This document shows, one piece after another, positions 32,987 to 44,205 of a stretch of DNA of 64,000 bases (position 1 is the first letter of the stretch; the number at the start of each line of letters is the position of its first letter). Below the pieces are notes generated by a model. The model was given only the letters and a program-made list of their open reading frames with translations, was not told the DNA's origin and made no database searches. Source of the stretch: Fistulifera solaris (taxonomy: Eukaryota); the NCBI GenBank assembly GCA_030295235.1, contig AP026173.1:434001-498000 (forward strand). The letters run 5' to 3'. A program made the translations under genes and the position numbers.

Positions 32987-34407
32987 ATGGTGAAGAAGGG
33001 AAAGAAAGACGCCGAAGATCTCGGAGCTATGCGCGCAGCTCGCTTCGGCCGAGTCAAAAATACTCTGTCAATGGGATTTGGTGAGTTTCTATAAATCGCC
33101 CGTCGCGTCTGTTGAATACTGTAGCTCATTTCTTTCGTCTTTCCTGCAGTCGGTCTTCCTAATGTCGGAAAATCCAGTCTCACCAATCTCTTGGCCGGCG
33201 CCAATCACGCCGAAGCCGCCAATTATCCTTTCTGTACCATTGACCCCAATGTGGTGCAGTGCGTCGTACCCGATCAGAAATTCCGTTACTTGGTGGATGT
33301 TTGGAAACCACCCTCGGTTGTGCCCGCCATGCTCAAAGTCACCGATATTGCGGGATTGATTCGGGGCGCCAGTGAAGGAGCCGGTTTGGGAAACGCCTTT
33401 TGTCGCACATTGCGGCCGTCGATGGGATCTTTCACTTAATTCGGGCCTTTGAGAGTGATGAAGTCATTCACGTCGATGATTCCGTCGATCCCGTCCGAGA
33501 CTTGGAAACCATTCAGGGTGAATTGTGTGCGAAAGACAAGGAAACACTCACCAAAGTGATGGAAAAAGAAAAGGAACGCGTGCGCAAAGAGAAGGGGCTA
33601 TCCCGTTCCGCCGATGTTCCCTTGGCCGAAAGCTTTCTGGAGGCCTATGCCAAGTGTGAAAAGCTCATCAATGACAACATTCCGGTGCAAACACATGAAG
33701 ATTTTTCGATGGCCGAAGTGGAATGCATCAAAGATTGGGGTCTCATTACCACCAAGCCGATGATTTATGTAGTCAACTTGTCACAGAAAAACTTTATCCG
33801 CAAAGGCAGCAAATTCCTTCCCAAAATCAATCAATGGGTCAAAGAACATGGCGGTGGTCAAATCATTCCCGTCTCGTGTGAGTTTGAAGAAACATTGCAA
33901 GGTATGCAGGATGACCACGCACAACAAAAAGGTACGTCGGCTGGTTCTTGACACAAACTTTTCGTGGATTGGTTCTTACAAAACACTGCTATTTGGAAAG
34001 CCTTCTTGCAACAGTGCACAGAAGAGGCCGAAGCGGCCGGTTTAAAAGGTCCGCAAGCCGAAGTCAAATCCATGATTCCGCGTTTGATCCGCGCTGGCCG
34101 ACAAGCACTTTGCTTGCAATCGTTTTACACGGCCGGCCCCAAGGAGGTCCGCGCCTGGACCATTATGCAAGGAACACTGGCACCCCAAGCGGCCGGTGTC
34201 ATTCACACGGACTTTGAACGCGGCTTTATTAAAGCCGAAGTCTGTGCCTTTGATGACTTTAAGGCATTGCATCAGGGACAGGCGAGTATGGCCAAAATAA
34301 AGGAAGCGGGCAAATACCGACAAGAAGGCAAGACGTATGCCATGCAAGAAGGTGATATTGTCGTGTTTATGCACAATGTGACTACAGCGAAAAGAAATAA
34401 TAATTAA
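32987..34407 (+). CDS. OLA1: Obg-like ATPase OLA1/YchF
   Basis: [11 protein letters not shown] (across intron 33081-33149), [59 protein letters not shown]. Second intron 33932-34000, frameshift at about 33400. Confidence 0.95.
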
Positions 34408-34656: not shown

Positions 34657-35061
34657 TCAATCCGCTTGAATACGAAAAGCCCATCGATACAATCGCCGAT
34701 ACCACACATTCTTTCGTTCTCGTTCCAGTCGTCGTTCTTCTAATATCTCGTGCGGTCGTTTGATCCGTTTCGTATTATCAAAATCCGTCTGAACAATTTT
34801 GTTCAATCGATCCATCATTTCGTCGTGTTCGGTTTGGAGGGCGGCTTGCCGCAACGATTGAGATGTTTTTCCTTGCGCCGCTTCCATTTCTTTTAATTTT
34901 CCCTGCAAAGCGCGACTGACCACCCACGCGCCCAGGATGGAAAAGAGAACAAACGGCAGTCCGGCACGTATCATCTCGTTCGTATTGCTGCGTCGATCGG
35001 AAAACCGACGAATCATCTGTCGGTGAGTATATTGTTGTAAGGCGCGTTTGACGAATAGCAT
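34657..35061 (-). CDS. COX16: Cytochrome c oxidase assembly protein COX16-like
   Basis: Basic mitochondrial-type N-terminus, single TM GLPFVLFSILGAWVV, then SL..E...L....DFDNTKRIKRP. Confidence 0.65.
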   Translation of the reverse strand: MLFVKRALQQYTHRQMIRRFSDRRSNTNEMIRAGLPFVLFSILGAWVVSRALQGKLKEMEAAQGKTSQSLRQAALQTEHDEMMDRLNKIVQTDFDNTKRIKRPHEILEERRLERERKNVWYRRLYRWAFRIQAD

Positions 35062-35606
35062 TCTTCCTTTCTGTATGAGGCAACTACTAAATGACAATCA
35101 CTGTTATTCCTTGGTTAGTTCTCTGTTTTCTATTCTCCGTATCATCTTTCGTCAATCAATAAACGACGACGAATGATGTGTACTCCGTACAGGTATGAGA
35201 AAGGGTTCGAAGTTCGAACTGCGTGAAGCGGAATAATCGGCGGACGGACGGACGCTCGATTTCGTGCGTACGGCGTACGTTGGGCGGCAAAAGATTTCTC
35301 CAACTATGATAGTTCAAGTAGAGAGTGAGAGTTATCTCGTGGCGTAACAGCGTCGTACTCATTTGGTTTGAACACACTTTAAATACCGATGACTTCCCAT
35401 TCTAGATCATTGTGCTTCCTGCAATGATGAGTTGTTGTCATGATGTTGTTTTATCATGCGTTGCATGCACCTCTTCAAGGCGTTTTGACTTTCAACTGGC
35501 TTCGGAAGGTTTGATTCTTCATTCTAGGAGTCAACGAGAAAAACATATATTGGGTGAATGATCGTTGGGGAGGGAACTTTTGAAGTTGACGCAATAATAT
35601 CCGCAA

Positions 35607-38295
35607 ATGATCCGGTCCAACATTGCTCTAGCAGTATTTCTGTTACTCTCCGGATGTAGTGATGCCTTGACAATTCCGGGAGGACGATCCGTGCGATCTT
35701 CATTCGTTCGTCAATCGGTTATGTTAGCGGCGGAACCGAAAAAAACGAAATCGATATCGCCGCGGTGCAGAAAGAAGCCGATGATGCTCTCAAGGCTGCG
35801 GAAGCCGCCCTGTCGAAAGGAAATAATGACAAGCCTCCAACACCCCCCACGCCCCCACGGCCCGTACAATTAGACCCCAAAGTCGTCGCCGCGACGAAAG
35901 CCTTTCAAAAAGCCGCAGCCGAATTTCAAGTCGAAGCCGTCGCGGCCGCCGTCGGTGCCGCGGCCGTGGGTGGAACCCTCGGTTTGACGTTGTTGGTGCA
36001 ATATCCTTCCATTACGGCCTCTGTCGATCCTCTGTACCGCCCTTGGCGGGGGCAACCTTGTTAGCGGGATCCGCCTTGGCCGTCGGCTTGCAAGATTCGC
36101 AACCGGGCCGGATTGTGCGCAATGTGCTCGGCAAACCAACCAAGGCCATTGGCACCGGTATTGCAAAATCCATCAAAAATTCGATCGATCGAACCGTAGA
36201 TCGTGTTGTTTCGTTCCCGGGATACGTCGCGGAGGAAACAAAGAAGAAGGTGACGACGACGGTCCAAGAAATCGAGTCGGATATTAAAGCATTTCCGAAA
36301 AAAGTCTCGGAAGCGGCTCTCGATGCTGCCGAAGACTTGAAGGAAGAGATCATTGCCACTCCGGGACGCATTGTGGAAGGAACGAAAGAAAGTGTACGTA
36401 AAACGGTGGAAGGAACCAAACAGGCAGTGCAACAGAAAACTAAGGAAACACAGGAGAAGATTGTGAAAAGTGTGGAGGAAGTGGTGGCCATTCCTACCAA
36501 AACAGTCGAAAGCATTGCTTCATTACTAGAAGGAGGTGAAAAGCGTGATCCGGAAGTCCCGAAACCGCCGAAATTACCACCACCGGAAGAGGCCATTCGG
36601 CAGGGAAGCAATCAAGTGCAACTTCCACGCTTGGCCGTACCCAAGCTGAGTACTTCTCCTGCTCCGCCCAAAGTTCAGCCGCCTGCTCCGAAAGCGGCGC
36701 CCAAACTGGATGCGCCCAAGATCGAGATCCCCAAAGTAGAAATACCAAAGATTGAGATTCCCAAGGTGGAAATCCCCAAAGTAGAAATTCCCAAAGTCGA
36801 AGTACCCCGTGTCGACCTTCCCAAACTGGATCTTCCCAAAGTGAAAGCACCGGAGGAAACAAAACCAGTTGCTAAGAAACCAGCCAAGAAAAAAGAAATC
36901 TGTTAACGAAGGAGCACAAGTCACGGCTTCGGTCAAAGCCCTCATGGCAGAATTGTCTGCTGAGAAGGTTACACCTGCCGTTGCGAAAACAGACAATACC
37001 GTAGCAGAACGTCGTCGTGCGGAAGAACAGGCTGAAAAGGCAAGATTAGAGCAAAAACAAAAGCAAGAACAGTTAAATGCCCAGAAAGCTGCCGAACGTG
37101 CCAAGGCTGCGGAGCAGCAACGTCAGCAGCAAGAAGAACGCAAGAGACAGCAAGAAGCTCAACAAGCTGAAAAGGCCCGACTTGCCATGGAGCAGAAACA
37201 GAGGCAAGAACAGGCCATCGCTCAAAAAGCAGCAGAACGAGCCAAAGCATTGGAACTCCAGCGCCAAAAACAGGAAGAGCGCAGAAGACAGCAAGAAGCA
37301 AAGCAAGCAGAGACGGAAGCTAAGCGTGCTGCTCAGCAGGCTCGTCAAGAGGAGCAGAATCGCAAGGCGGAACAGCAGCGCGCCGAGCAAGCTGAGAAAC
37401 GACGAGCTGCAGCGGAAGCGGCTCGTCTAGAGGCTGAGCGTCGACAGCAAGAACAAGCACGTCTTCGTGAAGAAAAACTAAAAGCTAGTCAGCAAAGGAA
37501 AAGCCACAAGCAGTCGCGACTGCACCGCGGCCCAGTTTCTTGCTTGGTACTTCTAGTCAAAGAGCATCTGCCGCAGCACCCCGTGGAGTGCCAACTATTG
37601 CATACTGGCGGAAACGCGCCGACAACGGTATCTCAGGAAAGATCTACGGATCGCCCAATTTTAAGGACGGGGAACGCGTGGAAACATCCGCAATCACGTT
37701 TGGGCAAATAGAGAACGGATATGTGGTTAAGACGAGCAGCGGTTCTCGTTACTTCCTCAGCAGCACCCCACCTGCACCTGGCAAAGCTGAAAAGGCTCTT
37801 GAATCCGCAAAGCCTGGGGCTACCATAAACTTGAGTAATATATTTAGCGGCAGTGCAAATGATGCCCAGGCACAGAAGGCAAAGCCACGGTCCACTCAAG
37901 CTAGCCCACAGCCCAGTACGACATTCTCTCTGTTTGGAAGCAGTGGAACAGTAACCGTAACGCCGCCGAAGAAAGAATCCGTTTCCAAATCAGTTAGTGT
38001 GAAAGCCGACAGTCCACCCCGTGCCACGTTTTCTTTGTTTGGGCTTGGTCAGGCAGATCCAGAAAGTGCACCTACGGTAAGTAAAGTTACGAAAAGCAAA
38101 CCCCGCGCCCCGCGCGGCGTGCCGACCCTAAAAAATTGGAGAAAAAATGGAGACAAATCCGTCACGGGGAACATCTCGGGTTCACCCAATTTTAAAGAAA
38201 ATGAAAAAGTGACAACAAGCCCTATTGTCAAGGGCAACATCGCTGCAGGAGAAGTTGTGACCACAGGAAGCGGATCGCGCTACTTTCTGAACTAG
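35607..38295 (+). CDS. Large plastid-targeted protein (about 900 aa): membrane hairpin, PKxEI repeats, coiled coil and two C-terminal PyShell-like beta domains
   Basis: Five consecutive ORFs join through single-base slips (about 35745, 36033, 36895, 37497). Signal MIRSNIALAVFLLLSGCSDA|L plus an Arg/Ser-rich transit region. Two copies of PRGVPT...W....D..(I/V).G.I.GSPNFK..E.V.TS.I..G.I..G.VV.T.SGSRYFL. Confidence 0.75.
36706..36845 (+). repeat. Coding pentapeptide repeat PK(I/V/L)(E/D)(I/V/L), about 9 units
   Basis: PKLDA-PKIEI-PKVEI-PKIEI-PKVEI-PKVEI-PKVEV-PRVDL-PKLDL-PKV. Confidence 0.85.
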
Positions 38296-39661: not shown

Positions 39662-40259
39662 GATTGGTATGCAATTTTCTCATCCACGATTTCGTCGGTG
39701 GCAATCAGATAATCTTTTGCAACAGGTTCACGAACCGTAGCCATCGCTCTTTGTACACACATGCATATAAACAGCTCGCAAACCTTTATTTGATAAACGC
39801 TGGTTGTCAATTCGAATGCACTTTTAAAGTGCGGAATATTTGTTAGGCTAAGAGATTCTTTTCCCTTTCTCGGTATCGTGACCGTGACTGGGTCACGTGT
39901 CCCGAGTGTACAGGAACTTGTGGAACAACTCTGTCACAAGGGTACCTGAGGATGGACATAGTGAGTACCGGTTCCGCTATCTCGCCATAAAAAATGAAAC
40001 GGTTCTTTTTCATCGATCATCGATCATCGTCATCGGCAGCTCCATCGTCCATCGTGCCTGTAGTAATCATAACTGCCATTATCTACCGGTAGTTTAGACT
40101 CTATTGTTCTGTTTTTATCAACAGAACATCTCTAGCATCAAAGTAAAGAAATAAGTGGCTTTGTAAGGTTGCGTCATTCCAAGGAATCACACATTTCTTC
40201 TCACTCAAGCCAATTGCCCCTCGACCACCACATCACCAAACACATTACTCGACAAAGAG

Positions 40260-41327
40260 ATGTTCAAAGCCACACTCACCATTGCGTGGATCACATGTGT
40301 CACGCAGGCATGGATCGTACCCCGTCCACAGAACCGCCACAGCACACAACTGCAAGTGGCTGCCAAAATCGGACGTGGCGTCCAACGCGTCAAAGATTCC
40401 TTGACTTCCGCCGAACGCAGTCGCGAAGATTTGAAGATTGGGATTGCCGGTTTCTACGATCGGAGCACCAAGTTGTGGGAGGAAGTGTGGGGTGATCATT
40501 TACATCACGGCTATTACGTTCCGGCCGATCGTACGGATCACAAACAGGCACAAATTGATATGATTGATGAAGTGCTGAAGTGGGCCGGTGTCGATCAAGC
40601 GACGCGTGTCGTCGACGTGGGTTGCGGTATCGGTGGATCGAGTCGTCATATTGCTCGTAAATTTCCCGGTTGTCAAACCGAAGGTATTACTTTAAGTCCC
40701 TATCAAGCCGGACGAGGCAATGAATTGGCAGCGGAACAGGGATTGGCGGACCAGTGTCGGTTTCAAGTGGCCGATGCGTTGGATATGCCGTTTGCCGACG
40801 ATTCGTTTGACTTGATCTGGAGTCTCGAGTCAGGAGAGCACATGCCTGACAAAAAGCAGTTCATCAATGAACTCTTTCGTGTCTGCGAGCCGGGTGGACG
40901 TATTATAGTGGTGACCTGGTGCCATCGTGATTTGGAGCCCGGAGAGACCTCACTCACCAAATCAGAGGAAAAGTTACTCCGAAAAATAAATCGGGCGTAT
41001 TATCTTCCACAATGGTGCAGTGTAAAGGATTATGTTGATTTGATGGAAGCACAAGGGGCGACAGACGTGAAGAGGGATGATTGGTCGTATATTATTGCTC
41101 CATTTTGGAAAGCGGTAATCAAGTCTTCACTCAATTTGAAATCGGTCATTGGATTGCTTCGATCAGGTTTCAGCACCCAGCGCGGAGCTTATGCCATGTT
41201 CCTTATGCTGCGAGGCTACAAGAAGGGACTCATCAAGTTTGGTTGCCTAACTTGCACCAAACCATTGTCAAAAAAGACTGAAAAAACGGAATCACCATCC
41301 GTCGACAAGGATAGCGAGGTTCTTTAA
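40260..41327 (+). CDS. VTE4: Gamma-tocopherol methyltransferase, plastid-targeted
   Basis: GIAGFYD.S..LWEEVWGDHLHHGYY, VDVGCGIGGSSR, FDLIWSLESGEHMPDK, VTWCHR, AYYLP.WCS, APFW.AVI. Signal ending TQA|W. Confidence 0.93.
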   Translation: MFKATLTIAWITCVTQAWIVPRPQNRHSTQLQVAAKIGRGVQRVKDSLTSAERSREDLKIGIAGFYDRSTKLWEEVWGDHLHHGYYVPADRTDHKQAQIDMIDEVLKWAGVDQATRVVDVGCGIGGSSRHIARKFPGCQTEGITLSPYQAGRGNELAAEQGLADQCRFQVADALDMPFADDSFDLIWSLESGEHMPDKKQFINELFRVCEPGGRIIVVTWCHRDLEPGETSLTKSEEKLLRKINRAYYLPQWCSVKDYVDLMEAQGATDVKRDDWSYIIAPFWKAVIKSSLNLKSVIGLLRSGFSTQRGAYAMFLMLRGYKKGLIKFGCLTCTKPLSKKTEKTESPSVDKDSEVL

Positions 41328-41396: not shown

Positions 41397-42589
41397 TCAT
41401 ATTCCTCCCCCGACGTAGAATTCCTTATGAAATTCGTATTGACGCATGTCTTCCTCTAGCCTTGCTTTCGTCAACACTTTGCCATTGTTGTCCAACCCAT
41501 GTCCCTGCATTTCGACACGGAAAAGTTCCCGTGGTGAAACATGCGGAAGCCCTTCGTCAAACAAAATCAACTCTCGTGGCTTTAACTCAATCCATTCTTC
41601 GTCATTGGTCAAAGGGGTAGTGGCCACGATACAAATTTGTCGGCTTCGAGATGTCTCGTCGTTGTTGAAATCATGCAAGAATGAAGACTTGTCGCATCCA
41701 TTCGTAGAATTTCCCGGTATCGATACAGTTACCGCATAGTCCTCATCCCCCAAACAGGTCGAACGAGAGCGTACCGTGTAATGGAGACCATTCCACGTCG
41801 AGGAACCCGGTCGTCTTCCGGGATAACTATACACCCACAACGCGTGTGGCCCACAAGCCAACAAGAAGTTCAAAATAGTCCCCTGCGGATCATATTCGAT
41901 AATTTCGTCGCACAAGGCACGGATACGATCGTGGAGGACCGGTAAACTTGGCATCGACCCCGTAAACTCGGCCCGCAACGAATTGAGAATGGCACAGAAA
42001 GCTTTCTCCGAGTCGGTGGTGCCGACCGGATAATACATGCGATCTCCCGGGATATTGCCGAGCCACGTATCGGGATGATCATCAAATAAGGGAATCTGTC
42101 CATTGTGACAGAAACTCCAATTTAGAGCCCACATTCTGATAAAGCGAGTGGATCGAGTCATTAGTACGGTGTAAATTCCTTTCGAGCAAACCAAGCACAT
42201 CATGAAACAACTTACTCTCGACAAAAGGGATGAACATTTGCCAAATCCACTTGCCCCGAGGTCGCATACCGTATATGTGCCAACACATTGCTGGCTTGAA
42301 TATTCTGTCGACCCAAAAATTGTGCCAAGGGACTCGTCGAAGCCGCTTCGACGTCATGAAATTGTCGGAGACCATTGTTGGCGTAATACACGAGACCCCA
42401 TCCATCGGCATGCACGTCGGTCGCACCACCTCGTTGACAAAAATCCGGCCACGACAAACCAAAATCGGTCGGTGCGGCACAATTCATTCCCAGCAGTTGG
42501 CAAAATAATAATGGATGGTTTCGTTTCGCCGGTCGTGACACGGAAAAGGCCTGGCCGGTTGGGAGCAGTGTCACAAGGATGACGCACAA
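41397..42589 (-). CDS. Class II glutamine amidotransferase/Ntn hydrolase, YafJ-like, with presequence
   Basis: CQLLGMNC..PTDF, RGG.TDVHADGWG, AHIRYAT.G...LANVHPF.RE, FCHNG, GTTDSE.AFC, VATTPLT.DE.W. Intron 42136-42215. True start uncertain (possibly 42636). Confidence 0.85.
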
Positions 42590-43010
42590 GAAATCAACAA
42601 CTTTTCTTTTGCGCCCGAATTTCGTTGTCGCTTCATTCTTCTGTCTTGTTGTCCCTTGGAGTTTAGCTTGTCTTTTGTTTTAGGGAAAGTTATGCACCAT
42701 TATTGACTTGGGGTCGTCGGAATAAAAAGCGAACCGCGAAAAAACTTTTTCTTCTCCACGTCTCGCAAACGTGTCTTTTGTGCGCCGCGAATGACGCTAA
42801 GTGGCGTACCGGTACCTAAAAGTCTAGTTAACACGAATTGGGAATGCCTCAAAAACGGGACAGTACGTTTGTAAGTACAATGAAAAATTCCGCGACCCCT
42901 CGCGTCTTCGCACACGTTTCGCACACATCACGCATTCTTTCGTCCGTCGCCATTCATCCCTTCAACAAACCAATTAAACACCTTTTCTCTTGTTTCAGTG
43001 ATGCCGGGTC

Positions 43011-44205
43011 ATGTCCACCACCCAAGATTTGTTTTTATCACCCGATGAACGATACGATGTTTGGGTTGTCAAGGCGGCCGAACGTCCTCATCTTCTTGAA
43101 GTACATTCGGACGAAACAAAGAATGATGCCGATCCTCCCTTGACCGATGGCTGTGATATACCGGGTTGGCGCCACGAACAGTTGGGCTCGCAACATCATT
43201 TAGAAGTCATACTGGAATCCATCGGCCCCGGAAGTACGTTGCTGCGACGGGAAAGTATGCTTCCTGTAAATTCGAACAAAACACCGTGGGATGACTTGCG
43301 ACAACGACTGTTACAAGAACCGGTTCAAACACCCCAACGATTTGCTTACCAACAATTACAAGGAACATTGCATCCGGTCTTTGAAAGAGAAAATTTCCCC
43401 GCCATCATCGATGGCTGTACGGAATTTTGGCCCGCGATGGAAACCTGTCGGTTCCAAAATCTTTTGCAGAAATATGGTCACCTGGAATGGCGATTCTCCG
43501 ACACGCACGGAGAGACGATGCGCTTGGACACCTACCAGAAATATATAGCGAGTTTGGAAGGTCAGAGTGATGATGCCCCCTTGGCCATCTACGATTCACA
43601 GTTTCACCACGACGAACGTGCTGCTCTCCTGGACGAATACCAAGTGCCTTCCTGTTTTGATACCGATCTCTTTGAGTATTTGAGTGATGACGACGATGAC
43701 GATGAATCCTCACAGAGACCGCCCTATCGATGGATCTTGATCGGACCTTCGCGTTCGGGGACCGGTCTTCATGTGGATCCGGTCGGTACGCATGCGTGGG
43801 TCACTCTCGTGGAAGGCTGTAAACGCTGGATATTGTTTGCACCCGACACAGATCGGCGCATAATACATATGCAAGACCCTCAAATTCCTTCCTCCATATG
43901 GTTTCACAAATATTATCCCGACGTTTTGGAAACAAGTGGACGAGGAAGGGCGAATCACTTATGTGGAAGTTCTACAACGTCCCGGAGAGACTGTCTATGT
44001 GCCTGCAGGATGGCCTCATTTGGTCCTCAATTTGGATTTGTCGGTCGCCATTACTCATAACTATGCAACTGAATACCCTTCCATGGCTGCTCTGTGGAGC
44101 GAAATCAATGAGGCTGAACCTGCTTTGGCACGTCGTTTCCAGGCAGCCATTCGAAAGATGCGTCCGGACTTGCTTCATGATAACGCCTTGACCGCGCAGC
44201 TATGA
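43011..44205 (+). CDS. JmjC-domain protein (JMJD6-like)
   Basis: PLAIYD, RPPYRWILIGPSRSGTGLHVDP, G.KRWILF, QRPGETVYVPAGWPHLVLNL..SVAITHNY. Frameshift at about 43933. Confidence 0.88.

Follow-up and report, generated by a model that had tools for sequence, protein, structure and literature searches.

The gene and the question it raises

In the diatom Fistulifera solaris, a stretch of 64,000 nucleotides (contig AP026173.1, positions 434,001 to 498,000; hereafter the window) carries a series of interrupted open reading frames on the plus strand between positions 35607 and 38295. A preliminary description made from the letters of the window had joined them into one membrane-anchored protein and placed it in the family of the pyrenoid-shell (PyShell) proteins. 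This raises the questions of whether the region is one gene, to which family its product belongs and what the product might do. The analysis led to a single gene for an 896-residue protein, P0126 (source name Fistulifera solaris FisN_24Hh190). The balance of evidence leans modestly towards a nuclear-encoded, plastid-imported and membrane-anchored protein that would serve as a multivalent scaffold or tether.

The region comprises five consecutive frame pieces on the plus strand (35607-35744, 35741-36031, 36031-36894, 36890-37495 and 37495-38292). They are separated by four frame slips near 35738, 36031, 36889-36894 and 37493, of which three sit in A runs. P0126 was retrieved as a 100% identical, longer relative of the last frame. 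The five pieces tile its residues 1-896 exactly and in order, which bears out the single reading frame proposed after bridging of the slips. Public contigs from four of the seven listed runs, none of which is on record as RNA, were compared with the region. A correcting indel was found at 35738 in contigs X1 and X2, at 36889/36894 in X1, X2 and X3, and at 37493 in X1 and X2, there on part of the depth. At 36031 no correcting row was present among the matches listed; two contigs span this position with no mismatch and one gap. A sister copy on contig C29 (92% identical) keeps the frame across three of the four breaks, the first break being common to both copies. It contains the extra base at 36031, and two further slips are found in this copy alone. 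Because an intact, identical 896-residue protein is on record, public contigs correct breaks and the sister copy is mostly in frame, we conclude that 35607-38295 is one gene and that the four slips are one-base assembly errors. Four frameshifts in the window, the first of them recurring in the sister copy, could also be taken for a pseudogene or for several separate genes wrongly joined, a reading that was rejected as extremely improbable on the same three grounds, the two slips of the sister copy being different ones. Full-length diatom relatives likewise join membrane hairpin, amphipathic belt and C-terminal domains in a single chain. Some of these relatives come from transcriptomes: P0177, P0179 and the cluster of P0131, all with the whole architecture, were derived from MMETSP transcriptomes.

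Architecture from presequence to rod

All parts of the protein are encoded on the plus strand. Residues 1-42 (35607..35732) resemble a bipartite plastid-type presequence, composed of a signal peptide (residues 1-20, Leu at +1) and a Ser/Arg-rich transit peptide. Among the 93 Met-starting long homologues, 45 contain the cleavage motif x-x-A/G↓F, compared to a mean of 11.7 and a maximum of 24 after shuffling. The presequence that had been noted thus looks plastid-type both by its sequence and by the enrichment of the motif among homologues. It is followed by a short acidic and amphipathic helix (residues 46-70; 35742..35815; hydrophobic moment 0.44), which is conserved in an alignment of 20 relatives, and then by a Pro-rich spacer.

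The hydrophobic hairpin described for about 35930-36090 was recovered by Kyte-Doolittle hydropathy as two Gly/Ala-rich segments (residues 109-132 and 144-162; peaks of 1.87 and 1.61) joined by a short acidic loop; the second slip, near 36031, falls inside it. The hairpin is present in 17 of the 20 aligned relatives, and the loop is net negative in all 17. P0170, P0173 and P0178, to which P0370 was added by eye, lack the hairpin and keep the belt of 22-residue repeats, and so provide a natural test of anchoring versus surface binding.

The amphipathic stretch that had been seen after the hairpin was confirmed and is organized as a belt of proline-punctuated 22-residue amphipathic repeats (36091..36534; residues 163-310), with a mean hydrophobic moment of 0.43 versus 0.19 in the rod described below. 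In 24 chosen proteins, the proline motifs of the belt define 99 intervals, of which 70 measure 22 residues and 90 some multiple of 11. Pairs of motifs 22 residues apart occurred 107 times in 38 proteins (shuffled mean 0.5, maximum 4). Exchangeable apolipoproteins (apoA-I, apoA-IV and apoE) likewise consist of amphipathic repeats of 22 residues that are punctuated by proline and have a sub-period of 11 residues. The belt shares this design in repeat length, punctuation and sub-period. It differs in that the Pfam Apolipoprotein profile matched the belt frame piece far below the cut-off (E 0.00086; 19.5 of 90 bits) and in that the same chain adds a hairpin and a rod to the belt. The likeness is most likely convergent. 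No stand-alone protein consisting of the hairpin/belt region was found among 5729 shorter candidates, and a search of the ESM Atlas with residues 90-310 gave no matches.

A further Pro-rich spacer (36556..36834) contains eight pentapeptide repeats of the PKxEI type (36715-36834; residues 371-410), a repeat already recognized in the earlier reading. The stretch of about 160 residues rich in Q, E, R and A, which had been taken for a coiled coil, is indeed a long rod (36998..37495; 166 residues, about 25 nm if fully helical), whereas its coiled-coil nature was not upheld. The Q/A/E/R/K-rich segment has only 11 large hydrophobic residues per 166 and an a/d occupancy of 8%. Opposite-charge pairs at i+3/i+4 number 58 versus 32.8 +/- 4.5 in 1000 shuffles, none of which reached 58. 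Since large hydrophobics are few, a/d positions are rarely occupied and opposite-charge pairs are in excess, a coiled coil was rejected, and by its residue statistics the rod is a charged single alpha-helix.

Two phage-related beta domains

The two tandem domains of about 60 residues recognized in the preliminary description, with their recurring motif, were located at 37570-37761 and 38101-38292. Beta domain 1 (64 residues; 37570..37761) scored 95.5 bits with a domain hidden Markov model (HMM) and was modeled with a predicted local distance difference test score (pLDDT) of 95-98; one short helix follows it in the model. Beta domain 2 (64 residues; 38101..38295 including the stop codon) forms the C-terminal end of the protein and was modeled by AlphaFold2 with six strands at a pLDDT of 95.3. 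In a model of the pair the domains are independent and separated by a disordered linker of about 110 residues (predicted template modeling score, pTM, 0.39). This linker (37762..38100; pLDDT about 45-56) contains three short hydrophobic motifs of the type T-[IF]-S-L-F-G (37822-37836, 37921-37938 and 38026-38043), which might be ligands of the beta domain but remain disordered in the single-chain model. The Trp residues of P0126 are confined to the two domains.

In fold searches, small uncharacterized phage proteins came closest, five of them at E <= 0.001 (best TMq 0.84, root mean square deviation (rmsd) 1.6, E 5.4e-5). The best phage fold matches have 66-135 residues, an example being A0A7G7WW81 of Rhizobium phage AF3. 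Further support for a phage relationship is provided by sequence profiles. PHROG 8840 matched P0126 at E 1.6e-6 (domain 1, E 0.00039), and with a threshold of E <= 0.01 it also matched 25 of 48 members of the family, the best at 5.5e-16; for the small beta domain of PHROG 8840, 11960 and 7165, profile and fold match span the whole domain. In the ESM Atlas the domain retrieved only clusters of hypothetical phage proteins (0.76-0.79), and domain 1 gave no match when phage records were searched by tblastn. The proteins of these three PHROG families are thus the nearest in fold and sequence profile. They are mostly short and of uncharacterized function, in contrast to the long eukaryotic proteins of diatoms in which the domain occurs as a repeated module.

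When solved structures were searched with Foldseek, the SANTA domain of M18BP1 ranked first (PDB 9R6H; TMq 0.60, E 0.02, 21% identity over 63 columns). By Z score this match (Z 4.1, rmsd 2.9, 53 residues aligned) was tied with the RFTS domain of DNMT1 (Z 4.5). Because the fold likeness is weak and tied in this way, SANTA function cannot be transferred to the domain. The Pfam SANTA profile (PF09133) had no match on P0126 and among 117 relatives hit a single one, whose 21.8 bits barely exceed the cut-off of 21. It was absent from the 25 families listed for the 120 and for the 48 alignment members, and a PF09133 search of the F. solaris genome gave no match, although its controls were silent as well. 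Sequence searches of the PDB with the domains and two profiles returned nothing significant. Excerpts of a published description present the SANTA core as three plus four strands followed by three helices, in the centromeric context of KNL2, mention phage look-alikes, and propose an extended motif as ligand (PMC12953894). The domain of P0126 weakly resembles SANTA of M18BP1/KNL2 in its small beta core, and both have phage look-alikes. It lacks the three C-terminal helices in the model and has no Pfam match, is found in plastid rather than centromeric proteins and occurs in 1-7 copies per protein. We conclude that the beta domain is phage-related and SANTA-core-like, and that it is not a SANTA domain.

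Distribution of the architecture and of the domain

The 107 long homologues fall into 34 with belt and hairpin, 4 with a belt only (a class whose size depends on the filter applied), 32 with an N-terminal SnoaL-like region and 37 other or partial proteins. The beta domain is present in one to seven copies per protein across the set. Where source names were given, all were diatoms, both pennate and centric. P0236-P0244, P0253 and P0258 consist largely of four to seven copies, and most of these proteins have plastid-type starts.

The F. solaris genome contains at least 12 domain matches on at least five gene pairs. Five pairs are the P0126 gene, a SnoaL-like type, a motif-rich arm, a protein with WW repeats and a kinase. 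The kinase (L019/L020, contigs C25 and C26) starts with a plastid-type presequence, and its beta domain is N-terminal. A search with its domain gave 265 representatives at E <= 0.001, of which the best 150 were listed and 130 new ones scanned. Of these 130, 21 contain a kinase domain and two a carbonic anhydrase (CA) domain of the theta type; many start with a plastid-type presequence, as judged by eye. The WW-repeat protein (L016/L017, contigs C3 and C4) has the beta domain at its end. Pro-rich motifs, of which P0126 has many, are what WW domains bind. The SnoaL-like type is represented by L011/L012 and L033 (contigs C34 and C35) and by P0463 (B7FW47), plastid-type proteins in which a duplicated SnoaL-like region is combined with a charged helix and with the beta domain. 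For B7FW47, the Phaeodactylum tricornutum paralogue, excerpts of a proteomic study list 16 peptides, an unknown function and a predicted chloroplast location, and report higher levels in cpftsy mutants (log2 0.93 and 0.57; PMC10269134). B7FW47 was not found by UniProt or RefSeq identifier in the PYCO1 supplements, where other identifiers may be in use (PMC10288592). A literature search yielded no description of the family or of the beta domain; pyrenoid candidate lists in bioRxiv supplements lay outside its scope and may contain orthologues.

The domain was also found on CAs. Five theta-CAs (PF18599) carry it: P0288, P0306, P0421, L030 (51-1253) and L031 (197-1417). In these proteins the presequence is followed by the beta domain, by a hydrophobic segment resembling a lumen-transfer signal and by the CA domain. 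P0344 and P0429 are arranged likewise, with a domain that matches 3h51 (E 4.7e-12) in last place; we take 3h51 to belong to the iota-CA family. A hydrophobic segment after the domain is present in 11 of the 130 representatives. P0428, with presequence, beta domain, hydrophobic segment and 3h51-matching domain, groups with P0344 and P0429. About ten shorter domain matches resemble first exons of theta-CA genes. Since the domain is common to theta- and iota-type CAs, the CO2-concentrating machinery may use it as an address module. What speaks against such a role is that all three theta-CA gene pairs of F. solaris itself lack a beta domain within 1.5 kb flanks. In two instances a theta-CA gene stands tail to tail with a gene for a GOST seven-transmembrane protein: L031, whose theta-CA has the beta domain, and L023/L024, the F. 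solaris copies (contigs C16 and C15), which have a twin-arginine-like signal and no beta domain.

A proposed scaffold or tether of a plastid membrane

The hairpin, the long rod and the distal domains lie in one chain, so that the tether-like build put forward earlier stands as a predicted architecture. P0126 would be imported into the plastid, where the Gly/Ala-rich hairpin would insert in an inner membrane, most likely the thylakoid, so that the short acidic loop would face the lumen and the two termini of the protein the stroma. The 22-residue amphipathic helices would lie on the membrane surface and might sense or stabilize curvature. To judge from sequence and model, the Pro-rich spacer and the helix of about 25 nm would hold the beta domains and the three hydrophobic motifs off the membrane. 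The beta domains would act as interaction modules for a stromal partner, the pyrenoid being one candidate. As these domains are common to other plastid proteins, P0126 might tether the membrane to a stromal structure or gather partners there. In favor of this role, the architecture of belt and hairpin is conserved in pennate and centric diatoms, and the domain recurs on unrelated proteins, many of them with plastid-type presequences.

Several observations weigh against a scaffold or tether. The +1 residue of the presequence is Leu and not Phe. The flank after the hairpin is net positive in only 9 of 17 relatives, so the positive-inside signal is weak. Three of the 20 aligned relatives have no hairpin and show an amphipathic stretch instead, at a common junction, and a true anchor would therefore be dispensable in one lineage. 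The weak likeness to SANTA may reflect a common arrangement only. A literature search found no localization, mutant or binding data for P0126 or its orthologues.

Known proteins with a comparable layout come from Chlamydomonas. Excerpts on RBMP2 describe a helical membrane-contact region, transmembrane helices, possibly as a hairpin, and C-terminal binding modules, which together shape and narrow pyrenoid tubules (10.64898/2026.06.29.735335). SAGA1 and MITH1 stick membrane to matrix, according to passages of a second study (PMC11649565). In layout P0126 would resemble these three, with helices that touch the membrane, helices that cross it and binding modules at the far end, and by analogy it would work like RBMP2 or SAGA1/MITH1. 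It differs in having no rhodanese or starch-binding domain and in that a folded beta module replaces linear Rubisco-binding motifs.

Alternative explanations

A pyrenoid-specific role is a special case of the scaffold or tether. P0126 would build or anchor the penetrating thylakoid, with the domain as an address module for the Rubisco matrix or the shell. Extended to the whole family, the phage-related module would bring theta- and iota-CAs, the kinase and other enzymes to one pyrenoid structure, and P0126 would be the diatom counterpart of RBMP2, SAGA1 or MITH1 that shapes the penetrating thylakoid and ties it to matrix or shell. The evidence comes from the CAs, on which the domain stands between presequence and lumen-transfer-like segment. 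According to passages of two studies, both model diatoms restrict a lumenal theta-CA to the penetrating thylakoid (PMC13655443; 10.1101/2023.10.26.564148), and for this reason the CA fusions point to the pyrenoid. Yet the domain is missing from all three theta-CA pairs of F. solaris, including the pair that has the downstream neighbor of L031, and the iota-CA LCIP63 is placed at the chloroplast periphery in excerpts of its description (PMC6776030). Moreover, the sticker repeats given for PYCO1 in passages of its description, KWSP and GTGYNP (PMC10288592), are absent from P0126, and KWSP occurs in none of the 107 long homologues. We regard the pyrenoid-specific role of P0126 as rather unlikely, and its extension to a common pyrenoid address as equally tentative.

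Coating of plastoglobules or plastid lipid droplets, with hairpin and belt wrapped around the lipid monolayer and the domains recruiting enzymes, is a distinctly unlikely alternative. A proline-punctuated belt of 22- and 11-residue periods is the design of exchangeable apolipoproteins, and the relatives without a hairpin keep the belt. However, because the loop is acidic in all 17 relatives with a hairpin, the hairpin is better suited to spanning a bilayer than to burial in neutral lipid, and a rod of 25 nm has no obvious use on a droplet.

P0126 might instead anchor the plastid nucleoid or RNA to a membrane, its basic beta domains binding nucleic acid, an outline resembling that of plant MFP1. 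The domains have net charges of +4 and +6, where the median for 799 domains of the family is +2, and their nearest solved folds, M18BP1 SANTA and DNMT1 RFTS, belong to chromatin proteins. These fold matches are weak, however, and the domain is also found on CAs, kinases and SnoaL-like proteins without a link to nucleic acid, which leaves nucleic-acid anchoring highly unlikely.

The family proposed at the outset fared worse still. Excerpts of two reports describe PyShell as 16 strands in two packed halves that lack a transmembrane helix (10.1101/2023.10.25.564039; 10.1101/2023.10.26.564148); the halves are packed by pseudo-two-fold symmetry (10.1101/2023.10.25.564039). PyShell/Shell1-6 (PF25192; PDB 8WQP) and P0126 have in common that they are nuclear-encoded diatom proteins with two repeated beta regions and a plastid presequence, a predicted one in P0126, and it is this tandem pair of beta domains on a plastid-targeted protein that speaks for a long, membrane-anchored member of the family. 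The PF25192 (DiatomPyrShell) profile had 27 matches in the F. solaris genome, none of them on the contig of the window (C27). It scored the shell open reading frame L001 of the same genome at 311 bits as a positive control, and found no match in P0126 at E <= 1. When the domains were compared with PyShell, as had been suggested, BLASTP gave a best E of 5.4 and profile-profile alignment by hhalign a probability of 0.02%. The domain HMM at maximal sensitivity returned no positive score against six shell open reading frames. Three PDB fold searches had no PyShell entry among the matches listed, which does not exclude the fold. The domains of P0126 are modeled with six strands each and as independent of each other, in contrast to the 16 packed strands of PyShell, and two hydrophobic segments are present versus none. 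PyShell proteins have about 300 residues in this genome (209 positions in the Pfam model), whereas P0126 has 896, with a hairpin and two separate domains of 64 residues. The family match, drawn from the motif, thus failed in profile, BLASTP, HMM and profile-profile comparison with a working control, and domain size, strand number and packing differ as well. A PyShell identity was rejected as hardly credible, and on the sequence evidence P0126 is not a PyShell. Two PyShell matches in F. solaris lie in unusually long frames of 517 and 501 residues (C15:804236-804856 and C16:780166-780786) and may be extended shell proteins.

Neighboring genes

Genes around P0126 were assigned by Pfam. Upstream lie a YchF GTPase (33125-34407) and a COX16-like gene (34657-35097). 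Downstream are a methyltransferase with a plastid-type start (40167-41327), presumably tocopherol methyltransferase-like, a class II glutamine amidotransferase (41397-42679) and a cupin/JmjC protein (43002-44205). Several of the neighbors in the window also contain frame slips, and no functional link to the P0126 gene was seen.

Significance

How the penetrating thylakoid of the diatom pyrenoid is shaped and held, and how lumenal CA is confined to it, are open questions. For the green-algal SAGA1, MITH1 and RBMP2, no diatom counterpart is named in the passages of the diatom literature covered here. The family described here is conserved and has the parts that such a thylakoid-shaping protein would need, and its domain is common to CAs of two unrelated classes. 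The family first assigned to P0126 was wrong; the outline of a tether is plausible, and the shared module is a lead worth testing. Should the link to the pyrenoid prove false, many diatom proteins would still carry a hitherto undescribed, phage-related module for interactions in the plastid.

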